Source: Escherichia coli
GTDB lineage: Bacteria > Pseudomonadota > Gammaproteobacteria > Enterobacterales > Enterobacteriaceae
Direction: 5' to 3' (one strand)
DNA length: 64,000 nt
Assembly: GCA_902500125.1 (NCBI GenBank)
Contig: GCA_902500125.1_4132.1
Of the stretch, positions 53,188 through 60,830 are shown piece after piece. Made by a program: the position numbers and the translations under genes. Under the pieces are notes generated by a model, which saw nothing but the letters and a program-made list of their open reading frames with translations, was not told the origin of the DNA and ran no database searches. Every line of letters begins with the position of its first letter. Position 1 is the stretch's first letter.

Positions 53188-53385
53188 ATGCGTATTTTAA
53201 CTCAAGCAGAACATCACGAAAGACTTATCAATAACATGGCATATATCCTACATATGTCACATATCCGTGGTATTGCATATAAGCGTGAATTGGTTATGGC
53301 ACTATTCATTGGAACTAACTTTCAGGAAAGGTATGTCAAGGATTGGATTTCATATTTAATTGAAGATATAACGGGTAAACTATGA
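53188..53385 (+). CDS. array-2 small paralog (LGTN[YF]QE motif)
   Basis: RBS-like GGAGTCCCTATG; ...FIGTNFQERYVKDWISYLIEDITGKL. Confidence 0.55.
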   Translation: MRILTQAEHHERLINNMAYILHMSHIRGIAYKRELVMALFIGTNFQERYVKDWISYLIEDITGKL

Positions 53386-53589
53386 AAATTATCACACAAT
53401 TTCAACTATATAATCTTATGATCGAATATAGAAAGAATATATATATATACCAGATGAGTTATCTAGGGATGAAAAAAAGTTTATTCTATCGGAGTGGTGG
53501 ATGATGGCTGGACTGGGAACCAACTTCCAAGAAAGTTTTGTTAATGATTGGATTTTACATTTAATAAAAGATATAAAGAGTAAACAATG
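53382..53589 (+). pseudogene. array-2 paralog with frameshift at a (TA)n tract
   Basis: MKIITQF... then AATATATATATATAC run (~53438-53449); the C-terminal family motif WWMMAGLGTNFQESFVNDWILHLIKDIKSKQ is in another frame. Confidence 0.45.
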
Positions 53590-53796
53590 AAAACTATAAC
53601 ACGAACCCAATCATTAGGTCTTATCTTGAAATACATGGACTTAATGTTGGATATCAGCAAAGACCTTCCTAAAACTGAAATCCAAGTTGCAAGAGCAGAG
53701 ATCCGCATGTTGGCTGTACTGAACACAAACCATCAGGAAGATTATGTTGAAGAATGGATTCGATTTTTAATAGAAGATATAAAGAGTAAATTATGA
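53587..53796 (+). CDS. array-2 small paralog
   Basis: ATGA overlap; LNTNHQEDYVEEWIRFLIEDIKSKL. Confidence 0.6.
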   Translation: MKTITRTQSLGLILKYMDLMLDISKDLPKTEIQVARAEIRMLAVLNTNHQEDYVEEWIRFLIEDIKSKL

Positions 53797-54008
53797 TTAT
53801 TATAGAAAACTCATATCAATATACTGAACGCATCGCTGCCAGACAACTTGAAATCCTCATAATATACGAAGAGACTTCTGATTTAAACTTAGCCGAGGTA
53901 TTGGAAAATGATATACTATTGGGTGCATTCTTAGGAACAGACTATCAGAAGTATTATGAGGAAAAGTATTTGTCATCTCTTGAGAAATATATCAGGAGCA
54001 AATTATGA
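53793..54008 (+). CDS. array-2 small paralog
   Basis: ATGA overlap; FLGTDYQKYYEEKY. Confidence 0.6.
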   Translation: MIIIENSYQYTERIAARQLEILIIYEETSDLNLAEVLENDILLGAFLGTDYQKYYEEKYLSSLEKYIRSKL

Positions 54009-54217
54009 TTTTTTTAACACCAGAAGAATATAAGAAACGTTTCAATTCCGCACAGGGTGAAATCTTACTTATATACCTTTCAAATGCAGACCTTAACTTA
54101 TCAAGGGTATTAGAAAAAGATTTACTTATGGGTGCATTCCTTGATACAGACTTTCAGGTGTATTATGTAGGGGAATACTTAATTGCACTTCAGAATTATA
54201 TCAGGAGTAAACTATGA
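54005..54217 (+). CDS. array-2 small paralog
   Basis: ATGA overlap; FLDTDFQVYYVGEY. Confidence 0.6.
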   Translation: MIFLTPEEYKKRFNSAQGEILLIYLSNADLNLSRVLEKDLLMGAFLDTDFQVYYVGEYLIALQNYIRSKL

Positions 54218-54441
54218 AACATTTAAGTAATTCCGAGAAGAATAAAATTATCATTGCTGCAATAAACAAATATTTTACACTTCCTCACAAAGAAGGTTTA
54301 TGTATAAGAGAACACAGGATAAACACCACCGATATACGCATGATGGCTGTACTGGGGACGAACTTCCAGGAAGAGTATGTTATTGCACACATAGTTGCAC
54401 TCAAGAATTACATTATGGACAAATGTAATGAACATCATTAA
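54214..54441 (+). CDS. array-2 small paralog
   Basis: ATGA overlap; VLGTNFQEEYVIAH. Confidence 0.6.
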   Translation: MKHLSNSEKNKIIIAAINKYFTLPHKEGLCIREHRINTTDIRMMAVLGTNFQEEYVIAHIVALKNYIMDKCNEHH

Positions 54442-54652
54442 TAACTTTGAATACGAGGCCCGTGCTAAGAGTGCCAGAAAAAAAGAGAACACCATTTACT
54501 TCACTATGATGTACTTACAATGGACTGAAATTGAAGAAAAGGTTGCTGAAGTATGGATGTTGGAATTCATGGGGACGCAGTATCAGAATAGGTTTGCGGG
54601 TGAGTATATCAATGTTCTTATGAAACAAATAGAAAGAAAGGAAAAGAACTAA
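54428..54652 (+). CDS. array-2 small paralog
   Basis: Internal Met; FMGTQYQNRFAGEY. Confidence 0.5.
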   Translation: MNIINNFEYEARAKSARKKENTIYFTMMYLQWTEIEEKVAEVWMLEFMGTQYQNRFAGEYINVLMKQIERKEKN

Positions 54653-54810
54653 TGGTTTTCATTAACATATCTGACCAACTCGATACTAAACTAGAAGTCG
54701 AGCAGAGTGAGGGATGGATGTTGTACTTTCTTGGAACTTCTCATCAGAATTTTTATATCCATGAACACATAGTTGCACTCACAAATCTAATAAGGGATAA
54801 ATGTAAATGA
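54652..54810 (+). CDS. array-2 short paralog (52 aa)
   Basis: TAATG overlap; FLGTSHQNFYIHEHIVAL; below the track cutoff. Confidence 0.4.
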   Translation: MVFINISDQLDTKLEVEQSEGWMLYFLGTSHQNFYIHEHIVALTNLIRDKCK

Positions 54811-58832: not shown

Positions 58833-59075
58833 ATGAAAGTACTGACAGAACTAGAAATGTATCATAGATTTAATAAGTACTATCATTTACTTAAGCCTAT
58901 ACAGAGGATTAAATGTCCATTTGAAGAGAAACAGGTATTAATTTATGAGCATAAGTTATTTGTATCATTAGGTACAGATCAACAAGAGTACTATTTGACG
59001 TTGTACTTGATTACATTAATAGATTTAATTTACTATAAAACCAAACAAGCTAATAAAGAGAAATATGAAAACTAA
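58833..59075 (+). CDS. array-2 small paralog
   Basis: Internal Met MKVLTELEMY; SLGTDQQEYYLTLY. Confidence 0.5.
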   Translation: MKVLTELEMYHRFNKYYHLLKPIQRIKCPFEEKQVLIYEHKLFVSLGTDQQEYYLTLYLITLIDLIYYKTKQANKEKYEN

Positions 59076-59409
59076 TATACAACTCAAGGTATATAAATCA
59101 TTTGAACATACATATATCAAAAGTAGTCTATGTAGAGATGTAATGGATTACAAGGGTAAGCCATTCACAATTACTTATGATTCTTATGTTGATGATTTAT
59201 ATATATCATTTGTTAATTACGAAAATAAAATATACAAGCACGTTGATATTAAAGATTTAAGTACTTTATCACCAGAGGAATACTTCCAGGAATCATTAGT
59301 ATGGGATTTAGAGTTCCCTATGCCATTAGTACATAAGATGATAGTACTAATGAAAGAATCTAAACAGGAGCCTAATAGTGCTTATGAAGAACACATTATT
59401 GAGTATTAA
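59065..59409 (+). CDS. array-3 paralog (EEYFQxSL family, 114 aa)
   Basis: LSPEEYFQESLVWDLEFPMPLVHKMIVLMKE. Confidence 0.55.
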   Translation: MKTNIQLKVYKSFEHTYIKSSLCRDVMDYKGKPFTITYDSYVDDLYISFVNYENKIYKHVDIKDLSTLSPEEYFQESLVWDLEFPMPLVHKMIVLMKESKQEPNSAYEEHIIEY

Positions 59410-59779
59410 GAGTACTGATAATATTAAGAGTTATACAAGCTCAAGTACTGTGACAATCGAAGTGAATTCTATTAATGCTGGTAATGCAGTAGATAAGTTC
59501 TTTATTGCTCAAGGGTACAGGAAAGATATTCATCAATATTGTTCAGTATATGGGGAGTACAATAGTACTGAAGATATAATTTATTGGTCAACACATCAAG
59601 ATTATCTAACTAAAATTGGAGTCCCAGATGTTAGTACTTTATCTGAAGAAGAATACTTTCAGTACAGCTTAATATGTGATGTACCTATACCTTTAGGGTT
59701 AATCAAGGGTATACAGGAAGAGGTTCATAAGCTTAAATCCATGAGTAAAGGTACTTTCATTAGAACAGTGCAATACTAG
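59378..59779 (+). CDS. array-3 paralog (133 aa)
   Basis: LSEEEYFQYSLICDVPIPLGLIKGIQEEVHKL. Confidence 0.55.
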   Translation: MLMKNTLLSIKSTDNIKSYTSSSTVTIEVNSINAGNAVDKFFIAQGYRKDIHQYCSVYGEYNSTEDIIYWSTHQDYLTKIGVPDVSTLSEEEYFQYSLICDVPIPLGLIKGIQEEVHKLKSMSKGTFIRTVQY

Positions 59780-59838
59780 CTTGACAGTACTTTTCATTAC
59801 TGATATAGTACACTAACGTTAATCATAGGGTAAAAATT

Positions 59839-60084
59839 ATGTTAAATTTTTTAAATTTCCTTATCGTTTTGTGTATTGTTCTTGGGATTGCACCATTTGT
59901 ATTGTATTTCATGGATTCAGATGAAATGCAGAAGATGAATTGTACAAGGACAGGACAGAGTAGAGAAGAGACGATTCTTATGCCTGTTACGGTTATTGTT
60001 AACAACATGCCCATTACAAACATGGTCCCTACCCTAACGACAACGTACCAGTACTCTTGTGCTGACGGAGAGAGGTGGAGATGA
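59839..60084 (+). CDS. small membrane/Cys-containing protein (81 aa)
   Basis: RBS ATAGGGTAAAAATTATG; hydrophobic N-terminus. Confidence 0.5.
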   Translation: MLNFLNFLIVLCIVLGIAPFVLYFMDSDEMQKMNCTRTGQSREETILMPVTVIVNNMPITNMVPTLTTTYQYSCADGERWR

Positions 60085-60401
60085 AATTTAATATAGCAAA
60101 AACATCGAGTATATGTATTTTTGGTTATGCAGAAGAGTTAGGTGATATTGACATTCTTTTGTACAAAAAGGATGGTGTTATGCATTTCAAGTACCAGGAT
60201 GAAGAGGCAGACAATTATCTTTTACCTAATTTAGTACAAATGCAGGAAGAGGAATTATTCCAGTACAGCTTAGTATACGACATTGATATTTGCACGATGC
60301 CAGTACTAATTAGTATTCAAAAAGTGATGCTCGATATGTATGATAAGCTAATACAAGGTACATCAGGGAGAATCATTGAAATCGATATACAAGACAATTA
60401 A
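60075..60401 (+). CDS. array-3 paralog (108 aa)
   Basis: MQEEELFQYSLVYDIDICTMPVLISIQKVMLDMYDKL. Confidence 0.55.
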   Translation: MEMKFNIAKTSSICIFGYAEELGDIDILLYKKDGVMHFKYQDEEADNYLLPNLVQMQEEELFQYSLVYDIDICTMPVLISIQKVMLDMYDKLIQGTSGRIIEIDIQDN

Positions 60402-60594
60402 TCAAGAATGGAAGACCCAAAAGTACAGGGAATTCAACAGGAATTTTACAAAAGATGCATTGAATTTAAAAACAACAGAGTTTGATATGTTTATTTTTCT
60501 TGGAACACGTTCACAAGAACAATTTGTTCATTATTATATAAATTCGTTGCGAACGGAGATAGTATGCAAAACACAGGGTATTATAAAAAGGTAA
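60376..60594 (+). CDS. array-2-like paralog
   Basis: FIFLGTRSQEQFVHYYINSLRTEIVCK. Confidence 0.5.
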   Translation: MKSIYKTINQEWKTQKYREFNRNFTKDALNLKTTEFDMFIFLGTRSQEQFVHYYINSLRTEIVCKTQGIIKR

Positions 60595-60830
60595 ACCAAT
60601 ATTTGTACGCTACAAAGTACAGGGATTTTTGTTTAAAGGGTGGTGATGAAGATTTTTCTTTGCGATTATCAGAATTTAATCTGTTATTTTATCTTGGTAC
60701 AAAAGAACAAGAAGAAATGGCACAGAAATTTATCAAGCACCTTTTACAAAAAATTAATATGCAAATTTTGATGCTTAAGTTACAGAATGAGATAAATGAA
60801 TATGAATCCAGAAATAGTACAGGATCTTAA
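60564..60830 (+). CDS. array-2-like paralog
   Basis: LFYLGTKEQEEMAQKFIKHLLQKI. Confidence 0.5.
   Translation: MQNTGYYKKVNQYLYATKYRDFCLKGGDEDFSLRLSEFNLLFYLGTKEQEEMAQKFIKHLLQKINMQILMLKLQNEINEYESRNSTGS

Follow-up and report, generated by a model that had tools for sequence, protein, structure and literature searches.

Why would a bacteriophage carry, back to back on one strand, more than two dozen diverged copies of a single short gene? The question is raised by a stretch of 64,000 nucleotides deposited as Escherichia coli (assembly GCA_902500125.1, contig GCA_902500125.1_4132.1), here called the window, in which the listing of open reading frames (ORFs) contains an unbroken run of small genes from position 53188 onward on the + strand. 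The region is 93 to 95% identical to Escherichia phages CRJP21, G17, Sharanji and PBECO4 of the genus Asteriusvirus (Rak2-like jumbo myoviruses with genomes of ~350 kb), and every gene under the match in these related phages is annotated "hypothetical protein." The members of the array are real genes under purifying selection. We tentatively read them as a set of small binders, made early and by coupled translation, that would serve host takeover or counter-defense, an explanation that we regard as possible, if not quite probable.

Membership, constraint and turnover of the array

We built a family hidden Markov model (HMM) from the aligned paralogs and scanned it against every stop-to-stop segment in all six frames of the window. 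Twenty-nine segments matched at E = 8e-14 to 4e-27, while the best unrelated segment in the window scored E = 0.43. The contiguous part of the array, at 53188-59075, holds 27 members (26 intact and 1 frameshifted), and 2 further members follow after four non-family genes; with starts chosen by homology, members are 52 to 88 aa long. An earlier note on this DNA had described a dense same-strand run of small paralogs from 53188, with outlying members at 60376 and 60564, and both the run and the two outliers are borne out by the ORF listing and the family HMM. What it had called one of the largest single-family expansions in the window is in fact the largest paralog family in the 64 kb. Its estimate of about 37, or more than 35, copies has to be lowered, since on the HMM scan the interval that it covered contains 29 family genes among 33, the genes at 59065-60401 being non-matching.

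The first issue is whether such an array codes for anything that is maintained. In orthologous pairs between the window and five relatives, the length-weighted ratio of nonsynonymous to synonymous substitution rates (dN/dS) is 0.28 to 0.36, and there is an excess of substitutions at third positions. The same phage pairs give dN/dS values of 0.16 to 0.23 for the flanking terminal-repeat genes and 0.19 to 0.29 for downstream genes, which indicates that the family is constrained, but less tightly than its neighbors. Neither Rfam nor Tandem Repeats Finder returned a match at 52000-64000, which rules out both an RNA element and a repeat at the DNA level.

The set of copies differs from phage to phage. 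The loci of nine Asteriusvirus phages hold 25 to 31 copies, and Asteriusvirus genomes 25 to 32; in CRJP21, two more members (gp_113 and gp_114; L017 729-1119, record 40734-41121) lie 12.8 kb downstream of the main array, at a position whose equivalent falls beyond the end of the 64-kb window. This downstream pair sits among other tightly packed genes of 110 to 200 aa. At 60% identity the copies resolve into 37 orthogroups, ~20 of which occur in all nine phages while the rest are present in some and absent from others, including alternative orthogroups that are mutually exclusive at one slot (e.g., 20/21 and 2/3). Paralogs are on average 24% identical (range, 16 to 53%; closest pairs, 51 to 53%) and adjacent ones 29.5% (permutation p < 1e-4); the low average, together with the greater likeness of adjacent copies, indicates that the expansion is old and arose by duplication of neighbors. 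Synonymous divergence (dS) varies from 0.02 to 1.4 from gene to gene within one phage pair, and this indicates mosaic exchange. Each copy keeps its identity between phages while the set keeps being edited through gain, loss and replacement of slots. Phage CMSTMSU (L005, MH494197, flagged UNVERIFIED) was left out of these comparisons because its array lies in many partial frames, with 19 partial HMM hits, and the broken frames most likely reflect poor sequence quality rather than biology.

An array of this kind has been interpreted before. Hua et al. (2017, mBio 8:e01579-17) read an array of "more than 30" genes in coliphage 121Q as a by-product of genome expansion. It is probably the same locus, since 121Q has 25 members at the orthologous place and no other family in the initial 90 kb of a relative comes near it in size; the fold, the repeat-adjacent position, the orthogroup structure and selection were not described there. 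On such an account, tandem duplicates would have built up along with capsid growth (the "ratchet" model), each with little or no function of its own. The variable copy number (25 to 31), the frameshifted copy in the window and the closer resemblance of neighboring than of distant copies are in keeping with this proposal, as is a dN/dS that is 1.5 to 2 times that of the adjacent terminal-repeat genes. However, a dN/dS of ~0.3 is far from neutral, and the codon of the invariant Thr in the family motif has undergone 20 synonymous and 0 nonsynonymous changes. Some 20 orthogroups have been kept in all nine phages despite ~24% identity between paralogs, and the family persists across genera. The disrupted copy is the single one in the window, and the relatives are nearly free of frame-split pairs, with none in 7 of 8 good-quality relatives and one N-terminal fragment in Salmonella phage SD-15_S21. 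We consider it unlikely that the array is a by-product of this sort.

Genome setting and transcription

Where the array lies bears on when it might be expressed. Transferring the boundary by homology from the annotated repeat_region 1..21525 of vB_Ec-M-J, we infer a direct terminal repeat of ~20.7 kb at 32398..53089 on the + strand of the window, of which this record apparently contains a single, collapsed copy. The inner end of the inferred repeat lies 99 nt before the start of the array, which occupies the first position of unique DNA; in vB_Ec-M-J, too, the first array gene starts 99 nt past the annotated direct terminal repeat. Terminal repeats of 20.7 to 21.0 kb have been found in Sharanji by PhageTerm and in fEgEco12, where restriction digests confirmed the repeat, and the GC skew of the window flips at ~32 kb. 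The array thus has the location, in or next to a long terminal repeat, that is expected of an early host-takeover cluster.

Gene organization changes at the repeat boundary: the small genes within the inferred repeat are spaced apart, and gap-free packing begins where the repeat ends. The repeat contains 26 copies of an extended -10 cassette, GTATAATGTTTTACAT, all on the + strand at 32784-52213, which forms the downstream part of a promoter cassette composed of TTGCAT or TTGACA, a spacer and GTATAATGTTTTACAT. Elsewhere in the window there is only one mismatched match, on the opposite strand, with 0.25 expected by chance. Downstream of at least seven of the cassettes in the repeat (repeat families D3 and D4) stand a hairpin of the GGGGxAAATGGTTCTCCCC type and a ribosome-binding site. 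A second, rarer class of intergenic cassette occurs in the repeat at 45834-45926, 48841-48933 and 51594-51686, where a hairpin, AAAGGGATTGACTCCGGTCAGTCCCTTT, contains TTGACT and is followed by TATTAT, making it a combined terminator-like and promoter-like element. The hexamers of the promoter at the head of the array match this second class.

That head promoter is a predicted sigma-70-like element, TTGACT-16 nt-TATTAT, at 53130..53157 (+), 30 nt upstream of member 1 and ~41 nt into the unique sequence beyond the terminal repeat, and both hexamers are kept in 8 of 9 Asteriusvirus relatives. The hexamers had been correctly given by the earlier note, with a spacer put at 17 nt that is 16 nt. Its description of the promoter as single was an overstatement, since promoter-like matches also occur at 57569 (11 of 12 positions) and in the only intergenic gap of the array block (59780-59838), which contains a TTGACA-17-TATAGT match at 59781. 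Across the region as a whole such matches are in no excess, numbering 62 against 71 in shuffled sequence. We rejected the internal TTGACA at 57569 as a promoter, given that it sits on Leu-Thr-Asp codons of the conserved N-terminal motif and that matches are not above the shuffled level. No strong terminator-like site was found from the head of the array to 63725, where an intrinsic-terminator-like site on the + strand (63725..63756; a 9-bp stem followed by a T run) is the first convincing one downstream and where G17 has an annotated terminator at the equivalent place. Because the promoter lies at 53130 and the next convincing terminator-like site at 63725, the transcription unit may be ~10.6 kb long and may end at that site, and one promoter for the whole array is plausible.

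The junctions between genes suggest how such a message could be translated. The 26 junctions of the contiguous run comprise 16 ATGA overlaps of 4 nt, one 1-nt overlap and one 1-nt gap, the rest being overlaps of 14 to 32 nt; the ATGA arrangement had been thought to hold for nearly all of them, and it holds for these 16. A Shine-Dalgarno core of at least 4 nt stands at a suitable distance from 12 of the 29 starts, against a random-position background of 14%. Since only these 12 starts have such a core, re-initiation after termination fits better than independent initiation.

Predicted fold and candidate functions

The C-terminal LGT..Q core and the loose N-terminal motif reported earlier both hold in the family alignment. 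The Thr is invariant, the Gln and one downstream Leu are conserved at 97% and the Gly at 86%, and the N-terminal consensus is M-[KR]-x-[LI]-[TS]-x-x-E-[YH]. With an alignment of 28 paralogs, AlphaFold2 models the 85-aa member at 54807 as a three-helix bundle (mean pLDDT 97.8, pTM 0.81), with predicted helices at residues 6-24, 31-45 and 52-84 that pack up-down-up, the third being long, and with residue 2 bridged to Thr49. A second paralog (57321), modeled as the N-terminal half of a natural fusion, has the same topology. In the model of the 54807 member, F/L-L-G-T-x-x-Q-E maps to the turn between helices 2 and 3 and to the first turn of helix 3, where Thr-x-x-Gln would act as a helix N-cap. 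The invariant and near-invariant residues would accordingly be those of the hydrophobic core, the Gly-Thr turn, the Thr-x-x-Gln cap and the N-terminal strand bridging to the turn. None of the array members looks like a membrane or secreted protein, and the family is one of soluble proteins, typically ~70 aa in length.

If the conserved positions hold the fold together, where does the family vary? We pooled substitutions over 27 orthogroups by profile column, a crude method whose counts are descriptive, and obtained a ratio of nonsynonymous to synonymous counts of 0.94 for hydrophobic core columns versus 2.07 for polar surface columns. The columns that vary most recur at intervals of 3 to 4 residues in helix 1 (3, 6, 7, 10, 11, 14, 17, 18 and 21) and helix 3 (53, 54, 57, 58, 61, 64, 68 and 72), and they trace one exposed stripe on each of these helices. 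Some of them exceed the ratio of ~3:1 expected under neutrality, but with so crude a count and with sites chosen post hoc we make no claim of positive selection. The members also differ in net charge, from -6 to +8.

Two kinds of function can be weighed against this model directly. The strictly conserved polar residues T49, Q52, E8, E40 and K70 lie together at one end of the bundle in the model, as they might if the proteins were adaptors whose conserved strand and GT-x-x-Q face docks one shared partner, either a host machine or other members of the family, while the variable faces recruit different cargo, or if the paralogs co-assembled into a hetero-oligomer, for which tight translational coupling would favor balanced output. 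The conservation of T-x-x-Q is equally well explained as a helix cap, however, and the presence and absence of slots is hard to square with a fixed assembly. The model of the natural two-paralog fusion (P0001) shows no confident packing between its domains (pTM 0.51), a weak test given the very shallow alignment of the second domain. We give adaptors or a hetero-oligomer little credence. A role as small nucleic-acid-binding regulators, helix-turn-helix (HTH)-like or RNA-binding, that tune phage or host expression appears very unlikely. The L-G-T-x-[YF]-Q turn between helices bears a superficial resemblance to that of an HTH and many members are basic (pI 8.6 to 9.8), but one third are acidic (pI 4.4 to 6), the predicted up-down-up bundle with its long third helix does not have HTH geometry, and the family has no profile match to an HTH, including among the Pfam HTH models.

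Database comparison assigned the family to PHROG 4148 (and the split-off PHROG 28039), of unknown function; eight members from the window match PHROG 4148 at E = 7e-9 to 6e-26 over profile positions 1-73, and distant and fused members match it as well. This membership gives no functional information, since the PHROG carries no annotation. For the 28 intact members, Pfam gave no match at E <= 0.01 and NCBIfam a single chance match; PADLOC yielded five single-member matches only (E >= 0.0015) and no defense-system assignment, and a profile search of PDB sequences found nothing. Foldseek gave no match in the PDB at E <= 0.001, with MIT and FAT bundles and T4 Vs.4 (E = 4) among those listed, and returned only the family itself from BFVD. 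MIT and FAT domains are small bundles of three or four helices that bind helical peptides in the grooves between helices; the likeness to them is one of shape only, and the E values of 1.9 or more and probabilities of 0.41 or less fall short of significance. No sequence or fold similarity was found to solved phage anti-sigma or anti-defense proteins (e.g., AsiA, Ocr, Acb2/Vs.4 and the Acr families). The initial statement that the family has no known function therefore stands, and these databases contain no characterized relative of it. None of the array genes of phAPEC6 (gp462c-gp489c) appears in the virion proteome table of that phage, which is weak evidence for a non-structural role.

We hypothesize that host RNA polymerase would transcribe the block early as one long message, from which successive array genes would be translated by termination and reinitiation. 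The products would constitute a battery of small protein binders on one scaffold, with the diversified faces of helices 1 and 3 each engaging a different host, defense or competitor protein, and the repertoire would be reshuffled between phages through gain, loss and replacement of whole slots. The position of the array, the type of its promoter, its absence from the phAPEC6 virion and its pattern of evolution favor an early host-interaction role in general, and nothing in them is specific to RNA polymerase or a sigma factor. Direct evidence speaks neither for nor against the anti-sigma, anti-defense or decoy role that the earlier note had suggested as possible. A stronger version, in which one scaffold carries some 37 cassette-inherited specificities that are swapped between co-infecting jumbo phages and that, expressed from a single early message, neutralize many defense or housekeeping proteins of the host at the same time, strikes us as rather unlikely.

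Several points weigh against a battery of early binders. The timing of transcription is deduced solely from promoter type and position, and small phage genes expressed early are often tightly packed for reasons that have nothing to do with their function. Surface positions taken together stay below neutrality, so that no positive selection is demonstrated. Phage SD-15_S21, moreover, has lost the head promoter through a deletion of ~75 bp (L009 3826-4070 aligned to window 53090-53187), which is either a real variant, implying read-through from the repeat, or an assembly artifact at the repeat boundary. The targets might also be proteins of competing phages or mobile elements rather than of the host, in which case the array would serve superinfection exclusion or competition between phages. 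Under that alternative one would expect the replacement of cassettes, the mosaic divergence and the early position, but this signature is common to it and to the battery of host-directed binders, the same data fit the latter equally, and no evidence points to it specifically; we judge it highly improbable.

Some features of the array recall better-known systems. The host-takeover module of SPO1 and the pre-early genes of T5 consist of small genes clustered at or within a long terminal repeat; host RNA polymerase transcribes these genes early, and their products act on the host. The genes of those modules are unrelated to one another, mostly have promoters of their own and lie inside the repeat, whereas a single family of paralogs makes up the array, which lies in unique DNA and contains no promoter cassette; it is the terminal-repeat genes of the window, rather than the array, that fit the SPO1/T5 description. 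The MGF110/360/505 families of African swine fever virus and the host-range families of poxviruses are tandem paralogs near genome ends that vary in copy number and have links to host range and immune evasion. The array likewise consists of tandem paralogs near a genome end with variable copy number and can in this sense be called a terminal multigene family, but it has no homology to these viral families and its proteins are far smaller. An expansion of similar scale is that of ~35 zinc-ribbon proteins in Bacillus phage G (Iyer et al., 2021, Viruses 13:63), also a small domain of unknown function expanded roughly 30-fold in one jumbo lineage. That domain is a zinc ribbon and not a cysteine-poor three-helix bundle, and phage G belongs to another phage group with another host. 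Where the genome papers on RaK2, CBB, phAPEC6, Sharanji, fEgEco12 and UE-S1 refer to paralogs at all, they do so only in general terms, and our literature search turned up neither a transcriptome nor a functional study for any early gene of an Asteriusvirus, nor a paper describing the fold, position, evolution or function of the array.

This family takes up roughly 2% of the 350-kb genome of a Rak2-like jumbo phage. If its members are individual binders of host or defense proteins, they would represent dozens of new small inhibitors on one easily engineered scaffold and would help explain how these phages, which lack a phage nucleus, cope with the diverse defenses of E. coli. If the array is instead dispensable, it would cleanly illustrate how duplication drives genome growth under the capsid-genome ratchet model. 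The locus is tractable in either case, with short genes, an E. coli K-12 host for phage Sharanji, and natural knockouts and allele swaps between phages.

The family has a narrow distribution. An exhaustive HMM search of 1.84 billion representative proteins returned only 90 clusters at E <= 0.001, and the named matches come either from Asteriusvirus or, labeled "E. coli," from contigs of ~350 kb. Distant members occur in Klebsiella phages RaK2 and K64-1, with eight in small groups at the RaK2 locus, and two uncultured contigs carry 16 members (twelve of them in a tight run) and 12 members, with the same switch from spaced to packed genes; DNA searches with these two uncultured arrays found no cultured relative. 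Members from different lineages are 30 to 38% identical. Many members have been deposited as "Escherichia coli" proteins (P0004, P0007, P0011, P0020 and others) on contigs of 343 to 383 kb, which are whole jumbo-phage genomes in bacterial isolate assemblies, in agreement with recent reports of lytic phage genomes in such assemblies. In phage UB (L008 11368-12177; P0180/P0185), a 269-aa protein joins an N-terminal family domain to a C-terminal domain of 200 aa. We considered this C-terminal domain as a "Rosetta stone" for function and rejected it, the domain being an orphan with no detectable homologue in 5.8 billion proteins.

Layout of the array and neighboring genes

All members lie on the + strand. 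The run opens with member 1 (53188..53385; 65 aa, HMM E = 8e-19), whose orthogroup is found in all nine phages compared. Member 2 (53382..53590) is the frameshifted copy, with its N-terminal part in one frame and its C-terminal part (LGTNFQE...) in another. The frame breaks at a (TA)n run near 53440-53455, where a change of one TA unit would restore it, and the gene is a singleton allele that is not orthologous to the slot-2 gene of eight relatives; the frameshift could mark a pseudogene, a sequencing error or a slippage site. Member 3 (53587..53796; 69 aa), member 5 (54005..54217; 70 aa) and member 6 (54214..54441; 75 aa) match the HMM and begin at ATGA junctions, as does member 4 (53793..54008; 71 aa), which is 53% identical to member 5.

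Less regular junctions follow. Member 7 (54428..54652) has 74 aa when read from a homology-supported ATG that gives a 14-nt overlap, and member 8 (54652..54810; 52 aa, 1-nt overlap) is without most of helix 1. Member 9 (54807..55064; 85 aa) is the one modeled with AlphaFold2. Member 10 (55042..55293; 83 aa) has a 23-nt overlap, and member 11 (55278..55514; 78 aa) a divergent motif, MTGTDKK. The ATGA junction returns in four successive members that match the HMM, namely 12 (55511..55726; 71 aa), 13 (55723..55941; 72 aa), 14 (55938..56150; 70 aa) and 15 (56147..56395; 82 aa). Member 16 (56379..56636; 85 aa) has a 17-nt overlap, and member 17 (56633..56884) is 83 aa long from the ATGA start at 56633 or 80 aa from 56642. 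Member 18 (56881..57129; 82 aa, ATGA junction) is 52% identical to member 19 (57107..57352; 81 aa, matching the HMM), a relatively recent duplicate.

Member 20 (57321..57563; 80 aa) corresponds to the N-terminal domain of P0001 that was modeled with the same topology. In the remainder of the run, members 21 (57560..57790; 76 aa), 23 (57980..58201; 73 aa), 25 (58398..58613; 71 aa) and 26 (58610..58831; 73 aa) begin at ATGA junctions and alternate in part with members 22 (57768..57983; 71 aa) and 24 (58186..58401; 71 aa), all six of them matching the HMM, and member 27 (58833..59075; 80 aa) closes the contiguous run.

The four interleaved non-family genes (59065..60401, +) lie between the main array and the two outlying members. 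Three of them (59065-59409, 59384-59779 and 60081-60401) share an LSxEEYFQxSL motif and match PHROG 13866, and the fourth (59839-60084) encodes a hydrophobic protein of 81 aa that matches PHROG 8826. Member 28 (60376..60594; 72 aa, HMM E = 2e-18) has a TTG start and is followed by member 29 (60564..60830; 88 aa, HMM E = 8e-14).

Other paralogous genes occur on the far side of the inferred terminal repeat. Eight tandem paralogs, seven of ~270 to 410 aa and one a 106-aa fragment, lie on the - strand at 18067-27816. Several two- and three-member families of 60- to 80-aa genes occupy 28144-31723, just before the repeat, and are probably what the earlier note had called "array 1."

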